Below are positions 5,157 through 16,711 of a stretch of 32,000 nt of DNA, piece by piece; position 1 is the stretch's first letter, and every line of letters starts with the position of its first letter. Origin of the DNA: Candidatus Nanosynbacter sp. BB002 (GTDB lineage: Bacteria; Patescibacteriota; Saccharimonadia; Saccharimonadales; Saccharimonadaceae); the NCBI RefSeq assembly GCF_037013405.1, contig NZ_CP146064.1, positions 480,001 through 512,000 on the forward strand. The letters run 5' to 3'. The notes beneath the pieces are model-generated. The model made no database searches and had not been told where the DNA came from. It saw only the letters and a program-made list of their open reading frames with translations. Both the position numbers and the translations under genes were made by a program.

Positions 5157-5942
5157 CTATACCAGTTCGCTGGCCATGTCAAGCATACCACGTAGTCCGC
5201 GCCTTCTCCGTGCCATATCGAGCAAAGCGGTCCTGCAAAGACCGGCCGTAAACCCAGTAAACGGCTGGTCAAAGAGGGTGAATATTTCGGCATACTCTTT
5301 ATTTTCCGTCACCTTAACACCCGAGAAGATATTCGCGCCCTCATTATACTCACGCCGCATATCATTGATGAGCACTCTTGACGCAAAACGCCCAATCACC
5401 CTATCAATCTCCCGCTGGATACGATTCAACTCATCCATGATGGCATAATAATTACGACTATCCTTGTCCATGCCATATTGTTCTCGCAATGATCTACCCG
5501 GGGCTCTCTCGATAACGGCGGCAGGTGGTGAATAGCCATCACCTACCAAGGCCAATACTGACGAGGTCGTGATGTCTGAATTATCCTGCTCAAGTTCTTC
5601 ACCTAACATATTCAACGTGAGCGTTTGTATCTGCGCCTCATCCTTATCCCGATGTCGCTTACTCAAATACGGAATGTCAGGACCTGGATCAATAACATAA
5701 GCATGTAATGCACCTAATCGAGCTGCGGCAATCTTATTTTGTATCACCTTTTCTCTACCCCGCCCATGATATTGCATCCAATCTGGATTTCGGCTGACCG
5801 ACGCAATAGCCGTCAGCTCCAAGGTTCGCTGAAAACCCTCATCATCAGCCAGCTCTGGACGGAATAAAACCGCAGTCACTTGATGGTTTTCCTGGTCCAT
5901 CGGCGACTTGACCGGATACTGGCGAATTTGCTCACTTTTCAC
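5157..5942 (-). CDS. hypothetical protein, no recognisable domain (261 aa)
   Basis: A long ORF with its own promoter and terminator and a GTG start at 5940-5942. I recognise no motif. Confidence 0.65.
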   Translation of the reverse strand: MKSEQIRQYPVKSPMDQENHQVTAVLFRPELADDEGFQRTLELTAIASVSRNPDWMQYHGRGREKVIQNKIAAARLGALHAYVIDPGPDIPYLSKRHRDKDEAQIQTLTLNMLGEELEQDNSDITTSSVLALVGDGYSPPAAVIERAPGRSLREQYGMDKDSRNYYAIMDELNRIQREIDRVIGRFASRVLINDMRREYNEGANIFSGVKVTENKEYAEIFTLFDQPFTGFTAGLCRTALLDMARRRRGLRGMLDMASELV

Positions 5943-7478: not shown

Positions 7479-7526
7479 TCGAATATCATAAGCCTTTTCC
7501 AACCAGTCAGTCTCGCAGCCAGCAAA

Positions 7527-7535
7527 TGATATAAT
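7527..7535 (+). promoter_or_regulatory. extended -10 (TGaTATAAT), 6 nt upstream of the pepN ATG
   Basis: The sequence reads aaaTGaTATAATaaaaccATG. Confidence 0.6.
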
Positions 7536-7541
7536 AAAACC

Positions 7542-10067
7542 ATGACAAAACTCAAGCATTTACTCGATACCTTTACACCCCATCACTATGACCTAACCCT
7601 CGACTTGACACGCGCCGAGGAAAAATCGTTTTCTGGCACAGTGATCATTTCCGGCGAGTCGACTGGCGAGTCGATTTCGCTACACGCCAAAGATTTGACT
7701 ATTCACTCGGCGTTGATTGACGACCAGCCAGCTGAGTTTTCTCACGGTGAGTTTGACGAGCTAAACCTGTCGCGCCCAGAGTTGTCCAGCGGTAAGCACA
7801 CCGTTCGCATCGACTTTTCTGGCACCATCACCGACGCTATGCACGGGCTATACCCATGCTATTTTACGCATAATGGCATTAAAAAGCAGTTATTCGCCAC
7901 CCAATTTGAATCGCACCACGCCCGCGAAGTCTTTCCGTGTGTTGACGAGCCAGCCGCCAAGGCAACTTACGACGTAACGCTGAGAACCGCACCAGATTTG
8001 ACCGTCCTTGGTAATATGCCCGTCACTACATCATCCGAGCAGGACAGTGCGCTGACAACCACTTTTGCCACCACACCGCGTATGAGTAGTTATTTGCTAG
8101 CTTTTGTCGTCGGCGAACTCCACAAGAAAACTGCTCATACCAAATCTGGCGTTGAAGTTAATATTTGGGCAACGCCAGCCCAAAGCGAGGAGACCCTGGA
8201 TTTTGCGCTGGACATTGCCACTAGCTCCATTGATTTTTATGATGAATATTTTGGCGTACCATATCCGTTGCCAAAGTCTGACCACGTAGCGCTGCCAGAT
8301 TTCTCGTCGGGTGCCATGGAAAACTGGGGGCTCATCACCTACCGCGAAAGTTGCCTGCTGGCTGACTCGAAATTAACACCAGAGTCATCCAAGCGCTTCA
8401 TCGCCACCGTCATCGCTCACGAGCTCAGCCACCAGTGGTTTGGTAATTTGGTGACCATGCAGTGGTGGAATGATCTGTGGCTGAACGAGAGCTTCGCCAA
8501 TATGATGGAATACGTCGCAGTCGACGCACTGCATCCTAAGTGGCGGATGTGGGAGGATTTTGCGACGGGCGAGGTCACAGTGGCGCTTCGACGCGATAGC
8601 CTAGACGGTGTGCAGCCAGTGCAGGCTGATGTTAATCACCCGGACGAGATCAGCACATTGTTTGACCCGGCAATTGTCTATGCTAAAGGTGGGCGGCTGC
8701 TGGTGATGGTGCGGCGGCTGATCGGCGAGGAAGCGTTTCGCTCTGGTTTGAAGGCATATTTTGAAAAATTTGCCTACCAAAACACTGTTGGTGATGATTT
8801 GTGGCAGGAGCTAGAGACTGCCAGCGGTCAGCCAATTATTAACCTGATGAACACTTGGATTTCTCAGCCAGGTTTACCAATCGTGCGAGTCGAACAGGAT
8901 AATTCGGCCAAGCAATCGACCGCCACCCTTCGCCAACAGCGCTTCTTCATCGGCGACCATCAGCCATCCGACGCCTTGTGGCCGATTCCATTATTCGCCA
9001 ACCAACCACTTGATGACGAAATTTTAACTGAACGTGAGAAAACATTCACCATTGAAAAACCGCTACAGCTGAACTGCGGACTGAACGGACATTTCGTGAC
9101 CAAATATGACACCACTACTCGTGAGCAACTATTGACTACTATTCACGAACTGCCGACTCTGGATAAAATCTGCCTACTCCAAGATGCTACGTTGTTAGCT
9201 CGGGCTGGATTTGAAAATTCAGCTTCACTCCTGCCACTGGCACTGTCGCTGAAACATGAAACCAACGAAAAGGTTTTCGGCATGGCGGCTGGTGCACTGG
9301 CGGAGCTACGCAAATTTGTTGACGATGATGACGACGGCAAGGCCCGCTTGAAGCAAATTTCTGGCGAATTTGCTCGCGCTACCTTTGACGAACTGGGTTG
9401 GGACGAAACACCCGGTGAATCCGACGACGACCGCGAACGGCGCGTCACTGCTCTAGGCTTGATGATCTATAGCGAAGACCAAGCAGTGCTAGCGGAAGCC
9501 AAGCGACGCTTCGACAGCCAGCCTCTTGAGGAATTACCAACAGAAATCCGTTCACTGATCATTAGTGCTACTGTGCGGCACTTTGAAACGCCAGAGATGA
9601 TTAACAGCCTGTTCCAGACCTACCAGCAGACGCCGTCAAACGACCTGCAAGCTGACATCACTCTGGGACTTACCGCCACTAAAAACCCCGAAACTGCGCA
9701 AAAAATCCTTGCAAATATCAAGCGCCCCGACGTCATTCGTCCACAAGACGCTAGCCGTTGGTTCGTTTATCTCATCCGCACTCACGAAAGCTGCCAGCTC
9801 ACGTGGGATTGGCTGAAGGATAATTGGCAGTGGGTCGAAACAACCTTTGCTGGCGACAAAAGCTACGATGAGTTCATTCGCTACGCTGCCATCGGGCTAA
9901 CAACGAGCGACGAACTGGCTGACTTCCGCCGCTTCTTTGAGCCGATGCTGAATATCCCAGCCCTGACTAGGACGATTGAGCTGGGCATCACAGAAATCGC
10001 AGCCCGAGTTGAGTTGATTGAGCGAGACAAGGCGGGCGTGCTCGCTGTTTTGCAAACAACACTGTGA
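7542..10067 (+). CDS. pepN: aminopeptidase N (M1 family zinc metallopeptidase)
   Basis: 841 aa with the GAMENWG exopeptidase motif and HELSHQWFGNLVTMQWWNDLWLNESFA (HExxH-x18-E). Confidence 0.9.
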   Translation: MTKLKHLLDTFTPHHYDLTLDLTRAEEKSFSGTVIISGESTGESISLHAKDLTIHSALIDDQPAEFSHGEFDELNLSRPELSSGKHTVRIDFSGTITDAMHGLYPCYFTHNGIKKQLFATQFESHHAREVFPCVDEPAAKATYDVTLRTAPDLTVLGNMPVTTSSEQDSALTTTFATTPRMSSYLLAFVVGELHKKTAHTKSGVEVNIWATPAQSEETLDFALDIATSSIDFYDEYFGVPYPLPKSDHVALPDFSSGAMENWGLITYRESCLLADSKLTPESSKRFIATVIAHELSHQWFGNLVTMQWWNDLWLNESFANMMEYVAVDALHPKWRMWEDFATGEVTVALRRDSLDGVQPVQADVNHPDEISTLFDPAIVYAKGGRLLVMVRRLIGEEAFRSGLKAYFEKFAYQNTVGDDLWQELETASGQPIINLMNTWISQPGLPIVRVEQDNSAKQSTATLRQQRFFIGDHQPSDALWPIPLFANQPLDDEILTEREKTFTIEKPLQLNCGLNGHFVTKYDTTTREQLLTTIHELPTLDKICLLQDATLLARAGFENSASLLPLALSLKHETNEKVFGMAAGALAELRKFVDDDDDGKARLKQISGEFARATFDELGWDETPGESDDDRERRVTALGLMIYSEDQAVLAEAKRRFDSQPLEELPTEIRSLIISATVRHFETPEMINSLFQTYQQTPSNDLQADITLGLTATKNPETAQKILANIKRPDVIRPQDASRWFVYLIRTHESCQLTWDWLKDNWQWVETTFAGDKSYDEFIRYAAIGLTTSDELADFRRFFEPMLNIPALTRTIELGITEIAARVELIERDKAGVLAVLQTTL

Positions 10068-10097: not shown

Positions 10098-10126
10098 TTG
10101 ACATTTTGTTCTATTAGTGATATATA
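10098..10126 (+). promoter_or_regulatory. near-consensus promoter (TTGACA-17-TGaTATATA) for small-ORF cassette 1
   Basis: The sequence reads TTGACAttttgttctattagTGaTATATA. A second TTGACA lies at 10085-10090. Confidence 0.55.
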
Positions 10127-10139
10127 TATTAGCTTTTCG

Positions 10140-10186
10140 CTCAAGTTTCCACAAAAAAGGGCGTGAAGTTGCCCTTTTTGCTTGAG
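10140..10186 (+). promoter_or_regulatory. terminator-like leader hairpin (possible pepN terminator and/or attenuator of cassette 1)
   Basis: The outer helix CTCAAG (10140-45) pairs with CTTGAG (10181-86). The inner helix AAAAAGGGC (10154-62) pairs with GCCCTTTTT (10171-79), and T-rich sequence follows. It lies between the predicted promoter and the AGGAGG SD. Confidence 0.55.
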
Positions 10187-10207
10187 TCTTGATTCTTAGG
10201 AGGAATC

Positions 10208-10567
10208 ATGAAGCGTCTTTTTGTCGGATATCTCTTCCTCATCGCCGCCACTGTGGTGGCATACCTCACTGCTAGAGCAGGACACCTTGCTCTAGCTTTA
10301 CTCCCCCTGGTGTCATACGCAGCCACCCTGGTCTGGATCCTTTACAAGGACCAGGTTAAGAGGCGTCTCTTTGACGCGGTGACGTACTGCCATGTCAAAG
10401 AATTGATAAAAGACAATCAGCGCCTCGCTGAGGCGCTGATTAGCGTAGCTGAAGCGACTCCTAGTGTCGTTCTGAGACAAGGGGAGGTCTACACAATAGA
10501 CCTCCCTGATCAAGATAAGCTCGTCCTCTACCGGCGTACTGCCGAAGAGGAGGAAAGGAAGGGCTGA
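10208..10567 (+). CDS. small membrane protein (two predicted TM helices, acidic C-terminus), unknown function
   Basis: AGGAGG lies 4 nt upstream of the ATG. The N-terminus is hydrophobic (LFVGYLFLIAATVVAYL, LALALLPLVSYAATLVWILY) and the protein ends in AEEEERKG. Confidence 0.6.
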   Translation: MKRLFVGYLFLIAATVVAYLTARAGHLALALLPLVSYAATLVWILYKDQVKRRLFDAVTYCHVKELIKDNQRLAEALISVAEATPSVVLRQGEVYTIDLPDQDKLVLYRRTAEEEERKG

Positions 10568-10568
10568 C

Positions 10569-10640
10569 CGCCCGCCTAGAGAATAGCTCGCCTCGAGGTT
10601 ACAGACCTCGGCTTGAGCCTCTCGGCGGGCTATTTTCTTT
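10569..10640 (+). repeat. 72-nt hairpin repeat, copy 1 (long imperfect stem plus T-tract; intrinsic terminator-like)
   Basis: It is identical base for base to 12023..12094. GCCCGCC pairs with GGCGGGC, GAGA with TCTC, GCTC with GAGC, and CGAGGT with ACCTCG around the loop TACAG. TATTTTCTTT follows. Confidence 0.85.
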
Positions 10641-10648
10641 GATTTATT

Positions 10649-11644
10649 TTACTCCAACACCACCTGCTTTCGTACTGTCAGCGGATTACCCTCGACAGCT
10701 ACCGCCAGTAACCGCATGTCACATCCTTCATATTGCGGATGCTTTGCCATGAATAATTCAGCTGCAAAGCGCATTTGTCGCTGTTTTTTGGTGGTAATTG
10801 CCGCCAGTCCACCACCAAAGTCATCATTTTTACGGTATTTCACCTCGGTAAACCACAGCACATCGTCTTTCATGCTGACAATATCAATCTCGCAGTACCG
10901 CGTCCGCCAATTGCGAGCGATAATCTCATGTCCATCCGCTGTCAGCCAGTCCGCGGCCGTCTGTTCACCCATATCGCCAATTTGACGCGTCGTGTTTCCC
11001 TGCTGATGTTTAATTTGACTACTAGACGATAGTTGCGAATTCCCCTCAGTGCCGGCGTATTTTTGCAGTGGCGCAAAACTCAGCCGATGTAGCGGCGTCA
11101 CGCCCAGCCGCTCAATCGCCGCGCGGTGCTTCGCCACACCATAGCCAGCATTCGACGCGAAGCCGTACCCTGGATAGACCACGTCTTGCTCGGTCATAAA
11201 CTGATCGCGCGCTACCTTGGCGATGATCGATGCTGCCGACACACTGGGGATCAAACCGTCAGCTTTCGCCATCACCGTCACGTATCGCTCCAGCGCTGTA
11301 TCCGCCAGAAAATTAACCGTCCCGTCAATGATAATTTCATCAAATGCCAAATTTTTCTCCTTGCACTGCGACTGAATTTGCTTGACCGCCCGCCGCGTCG
11401 CCAGACGCAAGGCCTGGCTCATACCAACGTCGTCCAATTCTCCAGCGCTCACCCAGCCTAGCGCCCACGCAGCCGCCTGCTCACGAATTACCTCGTCCAA
11501 AGCCTCGCGGCGTTTTTTGGTCAATTTTTTACTGTCGTTGAGCCCCTCGATATCAGCACCGCCCAAAATCACCGCGCCCACCACCAATGGCCCCGCCCAT
11601 GGCCCACGCCCAACTTCGTCAATACCGAGAATCATACCCATCAT
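10649..11644 (-). CDS. rnhB: ribonuclease HII fused to a YraN/UPF0102-family endonuclease domain
   Basis: The N-terminal ~200 aa is RNase HII (GIDEVGRGPWAGPLVVGAV). The C-terminal ~115 aa matches the YraN pattern (GEQTAADWL..GHEIIARNWR..CEIDIV...LWFTEVKYR). The true start may be ATG 11633-11635, since TATAAT 11643-11648 lies 7 nt upstream of it. Confidence 0.85.
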   Translation of the reverse strand: MMGMILGIDEVGRGPWAGPLVVGAVILGGADIEGLNDSKKLTKKRREALDEVIREQAAAWALGWVSAGELDDVGMSQALRLATRRAVKQIQSQCKEKNLAFDEIIIDGTVNFLADTALERYVTVMAKADGLIPSVSAASIIAKVARDQFMTEQDVVYPGYGFASNAGYGVAKHRAAIERLGVTPLHRLSFAPLQKYAGTEGNSQLSSSSQIKHQQGNTTRQIGDMGEQTAADWLTADGHEIIARNWRTRYCEIDIVSMKDDVLWFTEVKYRKNDDFGGGLAAITTKKQRQMRFAAELFMAKHPQYEGCDMRLLAVAVEGNPLTVRKQVVLE

Positions 11645-11699
11645 TATAACAAACGGCTACGTCCTGCGCGGAGCATTAACTTCTCTAGTTGGTAGGATA

Positions 11700-11728
11700 T
11701 TGACTTATTGTATTTTATATGCGATATT
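11700..11728 (+). promoter_or_regulatory. promoter (TTGACT-17-TGcGATATT) for small-ORF cassette 2
   Basis: The sequence reads TTGACTtattgtattttataTGcGATATT. The architecture matches the cassette 1 promoter. Confidence 0.5.
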
Positions 11729-11745
11729 AAAATTGACTTTTTGAT

Positions 11746-11798
11746 CAGAAGACTGTCGTCAAAGGGCGAAAAGCGCCCTTTTGGTCTTCTGAGTTTTT
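11746..11798 (+). promoter_or_regulatory. terminator-like leader hairpin of cassette 2
   Basis: The outer helix CAGAAGAC (11746-53) pairs with GTCTTCTG (11784-91). The inner helix AAAGGGCG (11761-68) pairs with CGCCCTTT (11774-81). TTTTT follows at 11794-98. The helix plan matches copy 1 but the outer-stem sequence is fully different. Confidence 0.55.
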
Positions 11799-11815
11799 CC
11801 TGAAAGGAGAAAGTC

Positions 11816-12010
11816 ATGAGTATTGTTACTACCGTTGGAATTGTTTTCTCCTATCTCCTGCCGATCGGTATTATGTTTTGGTGGCAGGAGAAAAAAATCC
11901 GATCACGAGATCGGTACATAAAATTCCTAGAAGGGATGGTACTGCACCTATCTCTGCATAGAGATATTGTCATGTTCATTGAGAACGGGGAGGAGGAACC
12001 CGAACAATAA
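11816..12010 (+). CDS. small membrane protein (one TM helix, acidic C-terminus), unknown function
   Basis: AAGGAG lies 6 nt upstream of the ATG. It has a TM segment (IVTTVGIVFSYLLPIGIMFWW) and ends in NGEEEPEQ. It is followed by the same 72-nt element as ORF 10208..10567. Confidence 0.5.
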   Translation: MSIVTTVGIVFSYLLPIGIMFWWQEKKIRSRDRYIKFLEGMVLHLSLHRDIVMFIENGEEEPEQ

Positions 12011-12022
12011 AGTAAGGGCTAG

Positions 12023-12094
12023 CGCCCGCCTAGAGAATAGCTCGCCTCGAGGTTACAGACCTCGGCTTGAGCCTCTCGGCGGGCTATTTTCTTT
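12023..12094 (+). repeat. 72-nt hairpin repeat, copy 2
   Basis: It is 100 percent identical to 10569..10640. The preceding AAGGGCT is also shared. Its reverse strand encodes the last 13 codons and the stop of the convergent membrane gene. Confidence 0.85.
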
Positions 12095-12553
12095 TACAAA
12101 CCGCCAGCCCATCCAGCCCAGCCACACCGTCGCCGCGCCCAGCGTATTTGCCAAAATATCCCAATTGGTATCGTCCAGCGTGATGCGCGCCAGCCCTGTC
12201 TTCACCATGTACAGTTCTGCCAGTTCATTAATGCAGCCCAGCGCCGACACCAGTGCAAACACCGAAAACGCCATCACCAACCAGTGCGACCGCCAGCGTG
12301 TCGCCAATACCAGGTACACCCACAACAGCCCCGTAAACAATCCGCCGCCCACGAAATGCGTCGTAAAGCTAGTGTCTCGCCCTTCGATCAGCGGCGACGG
12401 CAAATACCACGAGATGAAAAACAACACACAGGCAACATATAGCAGCCAGCGGTATTTTGCTTCGTCATTGAAACCCTGGCGGCGTAGTATGTACGGCACC
12501 GCAAATGCCAGCGTCAAAGGAACGAAAAAGGAAATATAGTGAAAGATCGACAT
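12053..12553 (-). CDS. multi-pass membrane protein (weak VanZ-like pattern), unknown function
   Basis: 166 aa with about 4-5 hydrophobic segments. NELAELY...DDTNWDILANTLGA loosely resembles VanZ-family motifs. The C-terminal KENSPPRGSSRGL is encoded within the 72-nt repeat. Confidence 0.7.
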   Translation of the reverse strand: MSIFHYISFFVPLTLAFAVPYILRRQGFNDEAKYRWLLYVACVLFFISWYLPSPLIEGRDTSFTTHFVGGGLFTGLLWVYLVLATRWRSHWLVMAFSVFALVSALGCINELAELYMVKTGLARITLDDTNWDILANTLGAATVWLGWMGWRFVKENSPPRGSSRGL

Positions 12554-12615: not shown

Positions 12616-13137
12616 TTACGCTTCTTTGTGGCGTGCTTCTACTTCAGCAGCCTTGGCGTCAAGTTCTGCCTGAGCAGCGTCTTTTTCAGCTTGCTTGGCA
12701 GCGGCAGCTTGTGCGGCCTCTTCTTTCAAGCGTTCAGCTTCTGCTTCAGCCTTGGCGTCGTGCACATTGTTGACAGCCACGCGATCAAAGTTTTTGGCAG
12801 TCAAGCGAGCTGATTTACCAGAACGCTTACGTAGGAAGCTGAGGAACTTGCGGCGAACCTTGGCACGGCGGACGATTTCCACCTTTTCAATCAGTGGGCT
12901 GTGCAGCAAGAATGATTTTTCCACACCAACACCTGAGGCGATTTTACGAACGGTGATGCGTGAGGTGTGCGAACCTTTGTTGTCGGTGCGGATGACCACA
13001 CCCTCAAACATCTGGATACGCTCTTTGTTACCTTCTTTAATCTTTTGATACACACGAACGGTGTCACCACTGCGGGCGTCAACAACTGCTTGCTTTTTCT
13101 GTGCTTGGTTGACTTTGTTGATTAGTTCAAAACTCAT
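12616..13137 (-). CDS. rplS: 50S ribosomal protein L19 with an Ala/Glu/Lys-rich C-terminal extension
   Basis: MSFELINKV...GDTVRVYQKIKEGNKERIQMFEGVVI...LHSPLIEKVEIVRRAKVRR is canonical L19. The start is ATG 13135-13137. The track's N-terminal extension runs through the leader. Confidence 0.9.
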   Translation of the reverse strand: MSFELINKVNQAQKKQAVVDARSGDTVRVYQKIKEGNKERIQMFEGVVIRTDNKGSHTSRITVRKIASGVGVEKSFLLHSPLIEKVEIVRRAKVRRKFLSFLRKRSGKSARLTAKNFDRVAVNNVHDAKAEAEAERLKEEAAQAAAAKQAEKDAAQAELDAKAAEVEARHKEA

Positions 13138-16162: not shown

Positions 16163-16183
16163 AAGTGCTTATGATTTAGCGAA

Positions 16184-16192
16184 TGATATAAT
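16184..16192 (+). promoter_or_regulatory. extended -10 (TGaTATAAT), 6 nt upstream of ATG 16199
   Basis: The sequence reads gaaTGaTATAATaagttcATG. Confidence 0.6.
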
Positions 16193-16198
16193 AAGTTC

Positions 16199-16711
16199 AT
16201 GCGACCAGAAATTACGCTTATTTTGCACAATATCCGTTCGACCCACAATGTCGGCGCTATCTTTCGCACAGCAGAAGGCCTGGGAGTAAAGCACATCGTC
16301 ATCAGCGGCTATACTCCATTTCCAGATTTGGCGATCATCAATCAACCAGACCCGCGACTACCGCACCTGGTTGAGAAAATAACCAAGCAAATTCACAAAA
16401 CAGCACTAGGCGCTGAGCAAATGGTTCCCTTTAGACGCTATGAAACTCTGGAGGAGTGGCTGGAGGAAAATGAGCGCACCGGCAACCTACCAGTCATCGC
16501 ACTGGAGCAAGCGCCAGATAGTACTTCACTACCAGATTTTATTCCACCAAAAGCGTTCGCGTTGCTGCTGGGCGAAGAAGTCGATGGCATATTGGCCGAA
16601 CATTTAGCGCGCTGTGCCGCGACAGTAGAAATCCCAATGTTTGGCACTAAAGAATCATTCAATGTCAGCGTTGCCTGCGGCATGGCACTATACCAGATGA
16701 TATGCCGCTGA
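16199..16711 (+). CDS. SpoU/TrmH-family RNA 2'-O-methyltransferase
   Basis: 170 aa with HNIRSTHNVGAIFRTAEGLGV, LLGEEVDGI and IPMFGTKESFNVSVACGMALYQ, which are the SPOUT motifs. Confidence 0.8.
   Translation: MRPEITLILHNIRSTHNVGAIFRTAEGLGVKHIVISGYTPFPDLAIINQPDPRLPHLVEKITKQIHKTALGAEQMVPFRRYETLEEWLEENERTGNLPVIALEQAPDSTSLPDFIPPKAFALLLGEEVDGILAEHLARCAATVEIPMFGTKESFNVSVACGMALYQMICR

Follow-up and report, generated by a model that had tools for sequence, protein, structure and literature searches.

What are the two small transcription units that flank the rnhB-yraN gene in the oral saccharibacterium Candidatus Nanosynbacter sp. BB002, and how can their ends be so alike when the proteins that they encode are not? 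The stretch analyzed here (the window) covers 32 kb, positions 480,001-512,000 of contig NZ_CP146064.1, and coordinates refer to positions in it. One unit, cassette 1, lies at an intergenic site next to pepN (site 1) and encloses an open reading frame (ORF) of 119 amino acids (aa), ORF119. The other, cassette 2, lies on the far side of rnhB-yraN (site 2) and encloses ORF64. The ends of such cassettes are conserved, portable modules: a promoter with a leader RNA of about 80 nucleotides (nt) at the 5' end and, at the 3' end, the last two codons, the stop and a long hairpin. The ORF between the modules differs across genomes at the same site and also across sites. We put the probability at slightly above one half (about 55%) that each unit is a self-contained, RNA-controlled small-gene cassette exchanged by recombination. 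Judging from the sequence comparisons, the window holds two members of a genome-wide cassette set in Nanosynbacter-like Saccharibacteria, and the typical product would be a fast-evolving small protein, usually membrane-anchored, encoded at an intergenic site between housekeeping genes.

The common plan of the two units, laid out in a preliminary description made from the DNA letters, was borne out in each of its parts. Both promoters are of the type TTGAC(A/T), 17-nt spacer, extended -10 box. Cassette 1 has TTGACA (10098-10103), a spacer ending in TGa and TATATA (10121-10126); cassette 2 has TTGACT (11700-11705), a spacer with TGc and GATATT (11723-11728). Transcription is predicted to start at about 10131-10133 and about 11735, respectively. 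The first promoter was passed over by a consensus scan because position 6 of its -10 box is A; it is present in all relatives at site 1, irrespective of the downstream ORF. Folding recovered the long leader hairpin, termed P1, at 10139-10187 (two tiers, -21.8 kcal/mol, z -2.9) and at 11745-11792 (-29.1 kcal/mol, z -3.6). A second hairpin, P2, takes in the strong Shine-Dalgarno (SD) sequence. In cassette 1 it spans 10190-10208, and its paired bases include the 3' half of the SD (AGGAGG, 10198-10203) as well as the A of AUG; in cassette 2 it spans 11796-11810, where UUUCCU pairs with AGGAGA of the SD (AAGGAG, 11804-11809). The small ORFs with transmembrane (TM) helices and acidic tails exist as proposed and are conserved as proteins in relatives. 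The 72-nt repeat at the 3' ends is exact (10569-10640 = 12023-12094), and the 32 kb contain no other long repeat. The -10 region of cassette 1 (10121-10129) is also a (TA)n run of about 4 to 7 repeats depending on the genome. The same length variation is seen in L004, L007, L009, L010 and many other loci (L-numbers denote loci from related genomes compared with the window), and it would move the 5' end of the leader by 2-6 nt.

Table 1. Features of the two cassettes and of the genes between and beside them (window coordinates).
Feature	Position	Strand	Remarks
Cassette 1 promoter	10098..10129	+	Read from the sequence; kept in relatives
Cassette 1 leader RNA	10129..10210	+	R1 model 83.9 bits; supported by folds and covariation
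ORF119, hypothetical protein	10208..10567	+	Identical to WP_338520500.1 (Ca. Nanosynbacter sp. BB002)
Cassette 1 3' module	10559..10640	+	Last two codons and stop (AAG GGC TGA, 10559-10567); hairpin 10569-10640
rnhB-yraN fusion	10649..11644	-	RNase HII and UPF0102 in one 331-aa protein; between the two sites
Cassette 2 promoter	11700..11736	+	Flagged by consensus scan
Cassette 2 leader RNA	11733..11818	+	Diverged subtype of the leader family; R1 model 51.8 bits
ORF64	11816..12010	+	64 aa, one hydrophobic helix, acidic tail; without NCBI accession
Cassette 2 3' module	12011..12094	+	Remnant of ancestral last codons and stop (AGT AAG GGC TAG, 12011-12022); hairpin 12023-12094
Convergent DUF2238-like neighbour	12053..12553	-	Weak DUF2238-like match in relatives

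The two units had been called paralogous, and this is correct for their RNA ends only. A single covariance model (R1, trained on 43 leaders) finds exactly two copies in the window, with the scores given in Table 1, and none elsewhere in the 32 kb. Since one model matches both leaders, they are homologous, cassette 2 carrying a diverged subtype. ORF119 and ORF64, in contrast, show no similarity (no BLASTP match; hhalign probability 0.3%). Their coding parts had been thought to have diverged almost beyond recognition, which is possible, but replacement of the whole ORF fits at least as well. Among related genomes the R1 model found 95 leader copies in 100 sources, 85 of them with a small ORF and then a same-family terminator downstream, an association sampled with bias because the loci of this survey were retrieved through the terminator pattern. 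The search for further copies that the preliminary description had proposed thus shows the cassette plan recurring, and RNA-structured modules for small membrane proteins are found in multiple intergenic copies at many related loci. Nearly all ORFs at terminator loci are preceded by the same upstream layout, namely a promoter TTGAC-17-TGTGATATAT, then AGCUUUUCGCUC...AAAAGGGC-loop-GCCCUUUU...GAGC, then the SD hairpin and the start codon.

Support for the leader as a structured RNA comes from folding and covariation. RNAfold gives the same two-hairpin fold, P1 plus P2, in nearly all of about 60 distinct leaders. Covariation was counted in 69 distinct sequences, and the values that follow are biased in favour of the structure, because the alignment was fitted to the R1 model under test and the sequences are related. 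Both sides change in 7 of the 9 pairs of outer P1 and in 4 of the 5 pairs of the P2 core; 93.9% of cells are paired in outer P1 and 89.7% in inner P1. Over the whole leader 86.6% are paired, compared with 46-55% when the partners are slid. P2 occurs in 34 distinct sequences with a median stability of -6.6 kcal/mol (range -3.4 to -10.4); most pair up to the A or U of AUG and some end 3-9 nt short of it. The leader of cassette 1 is nearly unchanged across genomes whose neighbouring genes have synonymous divergence (dS) of 0.5-0.8.

A third helix, helix A, was proposed by RNAalifold on an unfitted MAFFT alignment. It joins CUUUUYGCUC at the 5' end with GGGCRNGAAG (10133-10142 with 10159-10168 in cassette 1), and it and the P1 core are mutually exclusive. 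Helix A is 99.4-99.7% paired, versus 43-66% with slid partners; 18 sequences exchange C-G for U-A, and one subfamily has a matching one-base loss on each strand at the single mismatch. Helix A-like pairing was present in the nascent 5' part of 60 of 60 leaders in a loose, scripted test that asks only whether the pairing partner of the CUUU C lies 3' of where GGGC begins. The predicted nascent fold of cassette 2 differs from canonical helix A. Once complete, the leader favours P1 plus P2 (-27.8 vs. -17.8 kcal/mol in cassette 1). The conserved segments of the leader are solely CUUUU, GGGC/GCCC and the GAAG loop. All of them are explained by pairing, and a conserved unpaired ligand-binding core was not found, the bulge of P1 being variable in sequence and length. 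Rfam 15 contains no match to the leader at gathering score and only weak, chance-level matches at E up to 5.

P1 and helix A provide the mutually exclusive, covarying helices of an attenuator, but a free U-run is not present in all members: the U-run is paired, and one subfamily has neither the A-run nor the U-run. This subfamily still keeps helix A, and hence P1 is not solely an attenuator. Its members are L027, L030 (for example at 1340-1700), L039, L052, L060, L107 and L115; they precede 53-64-aa ORFs (MPTVTAIAP...RAAFW) and go with a much longer terminator variant with extra internal hairpins.

As folded, the 72-nt element forms one long hairpin with interruptions, after which comes UAUUUUCUUU; its energy of -37.5 kcal/mol (z -4.9) was matched by none of 200 shuffles. 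Similarity between the two 3' ends reaches back into the last codons, AAG GGC TGA in cassette 1 and AGT AAG GGC TAG in cassette 2. A scan with the pattern GCCCGCC-N30-60-GRCGGGCTATTTTCTT, run on one genome per species, returned 99 stretches, nearly all from Saccharibacteria and often on several contigs per assembly, with about four likely chance hits in other phyla. The hairpins fall into more than 50 sequence variants of 53-74 nt that have a common stem base and differing interiors. GAAAATAGCYCGCC, which many of them contain, is the 3' arm with its U-run in reverse complement, and RNAalifold prefers the symmetric pairing, in which the family consensus GAAAAUAGCYCGCC pairs with GGCGGGCUAUUUUC. 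Such a symmetric A-run/U-run hairpin has, as modelled, the shape of a two-way terminator. In the 72-nt element the GC-rich stem, the U-run/A-run and the place between convergent gene ends all agree with this predicted activity, and the minus-strand U-run is weaker in the window copy (UAUUCUCUA). The hairpin of cassette 1 begins 2 nt past the ORF119 stop, and 9 nt beyond its other end the convergent rnhB-yraN gene has its stop codon (10649). Among 102 distinct cassettes, 71 face a convergent ORF (90 codons or longer) whose end falls -41 to +25 nt from the hairpin.

Half of the ORFs examined (48 of 96) end in [KERM]G-stop, encoded by RAGGGCTRR directly 5' of the hairpin. It follows that the two final codons move as a part of the terminator module. 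Proteins of the ORF119 family have the tail EEEERKG with one terminator subtype and EEDE-EG with another. ORF64 stops at CAA TAA (12005-12022 region) where relatives read GAA GAA, then AGT AAG GGC TAG. Owing to this premature stop the window protein is without the final four residues (ESKG) of its relatives, which end in EEESKG. Terminator pairs within one genome are near-identical in three genomes and 79% identical in one; with only four genomes informative, this is too small a basis for concerted evolution of the two copies. Two other interpretations of the 3' hairpin were considered and dropped. It has the size of an integron attC, but it is without GTTRRRY-type ends and each cassette has its own promoter (no integrase search was made). 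As an inverted repeat that serves as a terminator it recalls the paired DNA uptake sequences of Neisseria, but only few copies per genome were seen.

The variation of the ORFs between these ends is best seen at the sites themselves. Across relatives the gene order is kept: pepN, site 1, rnhB-yraN, site 2, the DUF2238-like gene, rplS and malic enzyme. At site 1 the pepN-side promoter is constant and the ORF varies. Some genomes carry ORF119, L015 carries an unrelated 98-aa ORF, L011 a 96-aa ORF without TM helices, and L014 and L016 a 76-aa ORF with a different leader and terminator. The case of L015 is the clearest, since its leader equals that of window cassette 1 up to the ATG and its terminator differs by 1 nt, while the ORF is unrelated; no homology was detected between ORF119 and the ORF98 family (hhalign probability 1%). 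Site 2 holds the ORF64 cassette in the window, L009 and L011-L016. In L001-L004, L007 and L010 it holds another cassette with a very hydrophobic ORF of 38-45 aa, and in L005 and L006 it is empty. At the empty site rnhB and the DUF2238-like gene lie on one strand and overlap at the end of the latter (5440-5470), which means that the cassette splits an otherwise two-gene unit, rnhB then having its own -10 box (TATAAT, 7 nt upstream of its start).

Grouping cassettes by their convergent neighbour gene defines the sites. The site beside rnhB holds at least five ORF families (119-type 21, 98-type 9 and three others), and the site beside the DUF2238-like gene 43-45-aa peptides (16), ORF64 (9) and a 59-aa ORF (1). 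Further sites adjoin RNase III and another gene, and the L030 cassettes lie between trmD and a KH-domain gene and between rpsP and rnc. The ORFs directly 5' of the hairpins encode 38-198 aa, mostly with N-terminal hydrophobic helices and charged or acidic tails. At least 15 families unrelated by BLAST occur between the cassette ends, a few of them without TM helices. Compared with Pfam and PADLOC, the window ORFs and ten further cassette proteins, taken from other loci, had no match above threshold. The alternative cassette of site 2 is also found in L042, L057, L064, L089, L091 and L094. It has a promoter TTGCAT-17-TATAAT and a hairpin that pairs ACUAAACACACC with GGGUGUUUAGU and encloses the SD (L001, 7640-7920); its peptide ends in PGPR, its terminator shares only the stem base with the family, and by sequence it looks the most toxin-like of the payloads seen.

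ORF119 has two N-terminal hydrophobic helices and an acidic tail that ends in EEEERKG. Its homologues in related assemblies form 13 clusters with identity down to 62%, and those of ORF64 form 23 clusters with identity down to 58%. A profile search with the ORF119 family reached only 6 cluster representatives among 1.84 billion. The ratio of nonsynonymous to synonymous substitutions (dN/dS), computed against four relatives, is 0.13-0.41 for ORF119 and 0.31-0.41 in the three divergent comparisons. It is 0.00-0.15 for the neighbours pepN, rnhB and rplS at similar dS. These ratios indicate that ORF119 is a real protein, maintained by purifying selection but changing several times faster than the genes beside it.

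Recombination would offer a route for the replacement of whole ORFs, since every site has similar ends and natural competence for DNA uptake is known in Saccharibacteria (PMC10633639). Identity along the locus is a mosaic. Compared with L001, nucleotide identity is 98% in ORF119, 90% in pepN and 87% in rnhB, whereas compared with L009 it is 97% in rnhB and 80% in ORF119. These values fit exchange by transformation and homologous recombination.

How would such a cassette work? Transcription would start at about A/G-C-U-U-U-U (AGCUUUU) from a strong promoter, and the nascent 5' end would pair first with GGGCRNGAAG, so that helix A delays P1. The more stable two-tier P1, which in its GC stem and U-run is like an intrinsic terminator, would then displace helix A and either stop a fraction of the transcripts at the U-run or alter the accessibility of the 5' end. 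The proportion of transcripts reading through or surviving would depend on how helix A and P1 are balanced. P2 would hide the SD and AUG at moderate stability, and translation would be throttled or need an opening factor. Finally, the 3' hairpin would terminate both the cassette transcript and that of the convergent neighbour, and recombination in the shared ends or flanking genes could swap whole ORFs. A more ambitious version holds that the leader is a new bistable regulatory RNA and forms a portable chassis with the terminator, by which Saccharibacteria would keep under common control a fast-changing set of small proteins anchored in the membrane, while recombination via the RNA ends would swap whole ORFs at fixed intergenic sites. 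We regard this version as tentative and would sooner bet against it than for it.

Several points weigh against an RNA-controlled, exchangeable cassette, in addition to the sampling bias of the leader survey. A simple terminator scan does not flag P1, because its U-run pairs with an upstream A-run; given this pairing and the subfamily without runs, attenuation may not be the main role of P1. Helix A and P1 have few truly independent covariation events in common, and the control in which 0 of 500 shuffles matched the covariation score of the leader is inflated by the relatedness of the sequences. The number of cassettes per genome is a lower bound only. ORF replacement is inferred from patterns in the sequences, not from mapped breakpoints, and the families with membrane helices could possibly represent extreme divergence of one ancestral ORF. 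Lastly, AlphaFold2 on the ORF119 alignment produced a poor model (pLDDT 64, pTM 0.27, its scores for local and global confidence), too poor to be used for a fold search.

An unlikely alternative is that these are ordinary genes with ordinary signals, in which terminators are shared, the leader hairpin ends pepN transcription, and the similarity stems from duplication or gene conversion with no regulation involved. The position of the 3' hairpin against a convergent gene in 71 of 102 cassettes and its symmetric fold would suit this explanation, as would the near-identity of copies within one genome and the finding that no other terminator-like structure lies between pepN and P1. However, P1 is retained at sites with a divergent upstream gene (cassette 2; the L030 sites by trmD and rpsP), and thus it is not simply the terminator of the upstream gene. 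P2 and helix A covary though they have no terminator role, the leader is almost invariant next to genes with dS of 0.5-0.8, and the leader family occurs at several distant sites per genome.

The preliminary description had compared the units, as a speculation, to type I toxin-antitoxin modules, in which a hydrophobic membrane toxin is encoded by an mRNA kept inert through its leader and neutralized by an antisense RNA. The resemblance is real in several respects. The ORFs are small and begin with hydrophobic helices, the 5' untranslated region is heavily structured with the SD and AUG sequestered in P2, and the intergenic copies are several and vary in presence between strains. The other occupant of site 2 is a very hydrophobic peptide of 38-45 aa behind its own SD-occluding hairpin. 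Type I toxins usually stay below 60 aa; ORF64, at 64 aa and with one helix, is compatible with this size, and ORF119, at 119 aa and with two, is large. This explanation is quite improbable. No antitoxin RNA gene was found, either antisense or adjacent, and no minus-strand promoter or terminator is conserved, which leaves the toxin idea unsupported. The variable ORFs leave no space for a conserved internal antisense promoter, and the convergent partners are housekeeping protein genes. In addition, the same ends frame proteins of 140-196 aa, several without TM helices, and no toxin or defence match emerged from Pfam or PADLOC.

Minus-strand terminator-like hairpins do occur within ORF119 (10414-10442) and ORF64 (11899-11914), but they are not conserved in relatives and were judged incidental. 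The ORF119 hairpin is a perfect 12-bp palindrome that codes for the invariant NQRLAEALI motif; from the opposite strand of the L009 copy, a nearly identical peptide would be made. Pairing at its synonymous sites is not retained in relatives.

It is more doubtful still that the leader is an RNA thermometer or the target of a trans-acting factor, with P2 (together with P1) switching a cassette regulon by one signal and ORF swapping being incidental. P2 has stabilities (-3.4 to -10.4 kcal/mol) and U-rich strands pairing with AGGA that recall fourU-type thermometers, and one leader precedes many unrelated genes. Between 30 and 42°C, however, its energy shifts by just 1-1.5 kcal/mol, the temperature around an oral epibiont hardly varies, and no candidate factor was identified. 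At other sites two or three direct repeats TTGCRAAA, about 11-13 nt apart, lie upstream of the -35 box (L030 3100-3170, L037, L056, L018 and many loci). To judge by their placement, these repeats may be a regulator binding site, which would suit a regulon, but the two window cassettes have none.

That the conserved ends are selfish repeats, MITE-like (miniature inverted-repeat transposable elements) or 'mobile promoters' enclosing non-functional ORFs, is very improbable: the copies are dispersed, show terminal inverted symmetry (GAAAATAGCYCGCC ... GGCGGGCTATTTTC) and place leader and promoter upstream of unrelated ORFs, but the dN/dS of ORF119 is well below 1, its frame is kept in 13 clusters, ORF64 is conserved in 23, the 5' and 3' modules always stand in the same order and orientation around the ORF, and no transposase, target duplications or copies on viral contigs were seen.

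Some features of the surrounding genes deserve mention. The rnhB-yraN fusion is shared with relatives, where some gene calls reach 359-362 aa via an upstream start. The DUF2238-like gene takes its final 14 codons from the terminator repeat (12053-12094), and its product has 166 aa in the window versus 156 aa in relatives, which stop at the TAG inside CTATTTT. The T-run after the cassette 2 hairpin has 4 T in the window versus 5 T in relatives. Ribosomal protein L19 (12616-13209, minus strand) has a Lys/Ala/Glu-rich C-terminal extension past its Pfam domain, whose end is near residue 137 of the ORF as listed; within the extension lies a 40-nt direct repeat that is not quite perfect (12621-12660 and 12720-12759). 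The genes pepN and rnhB and three other first genes have a TATAAT-like box, in many cases with TG, 5-7 nt before the start codon (for example at 7521-7544, 11645-11662 on the minus strand and 16178-16201). Most genes in the window had been described as apparently leaderless. These boxes suggest that the genes heading transcription units do have leaderless mRNAs, but internal genes use SD sequences.

To our knowledge, almost nothing is known about gene regulation in Patescibacteria (the candidate phyla radiation, CPR), and we know of no Patescibacteria-specific regulatory RNA in Rfam. A compact, covariation-backed leader with two competing folds before at least 15 unrelated small-protein families is of interest in this regard. 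The genomes of these organisms measure about 0.7-0.8 Mb, and every gene is costly to keep. Conserved ends around a replaceable ORF may serve as a concrete model for accessory-gene turnover without mobile-element machinery in a competent epibiont with a reduced genome. If the portable-chassis reading is true, the repertoire could bear on host range, phage exclusion and competition among epibionts. Nanosynbacter and relatives can be cultured and transformed, which opens the proposed leader switch and block of translation, and what the small proteins do, to direct tests. The leader and terminator models also help to find unannotated small genes such as ORF64.

We found no description of these cassettes or of their leader in the literature, and their relatives must be sought among systems that resemble one part or another. 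For the sites, the closest concept appears to be the minimal mobile elements of Neisseria, short alternative cassettes between conserved genes whose exchange, in a naturally competent host, is attributed to uptake and homologous recombination (PMC1797815, citing Saunders and Snyder 2002). Insofar as they are outlined in that source, they share with the present sites the conserved flanking genes, the unrelated alternative content in each strain and the lack of mobility genes; none was found in or beside the window cassettes, which are flanked by pepN, rnhB-yraN, the DUF2238-like gene and rplS. On the same account, the present cassettes differ in carrying leader and terminator ends common to different sites, in that the ORF alone can change while promoter, leader and terminator stay, and in that each payload is one small protein, where those elements carry restriction systems and similar content.

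For the unit, the phage moron seems the nearest parallel. Morons, a concept associated with Juhala, Hendrix and colleagues, are reportedly autonomous units: a promoter, a single ORF and a factor-independent terminator, inserted between two genes that relatives have side by side. The present units likewise have their own promoter and terminator around one ORF. They differ from morons in lying between chromosomal housekeeping genes (pepN, rnhB, rplS, rnc, rpsP and trmD), not in a phage or prophage, and in sharing a structured leader. A phage origin was rejected: among 2.9 million viral contigs there was no match to the terminator pattern, and none of six matches to the leader pattern fits the leader model.

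Type I toxin mRNAs such as hok, tisB and aapA1 encode small hydrophobic proteins, hide the ribosome-binding site in a folded 5' region and exist in several intergenic copies that vary by strain. The last two traits recur here, and the first does so for part of the cassette proteins, but no antitoxin RNA was found, many of the proteins are far larger or without TM helices, and they show no similarity to known toxin families. For the leader, attenuators and SD-occluding leaders appear the closest concept. Known types include terminator/antiterminator leaders and the fourU and ROSE thermometers. As in these, an early 5' helix opposes a terminator-like hairpin, and a downstream hairpin pairs the SD and start codon. 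Unlike them, the present leader has no conserved ligand pocket, leader peptide, T-box or RAT-like motif, its P1 bulge is variable, one subfamily is without the U-run, and it belongs to no Rfam family. Homologous upstream regions before non-homologous genes are known from the erp/UHB (upstream homology box) families of Borrelia and have reportedly been found within single genomes as putative mobile promoters (Matus-Garcia and colleagues, 2012). The cassettes share this arrangement with both and differ from them in that the 3' end, including the last two codons, is also conserved, the leader RNA is backed by covariation, and fixed sites have alternative occupants. A member of none of the families compared, the system found here appears to combine site-specific cassette turnover with a new leader RNA.

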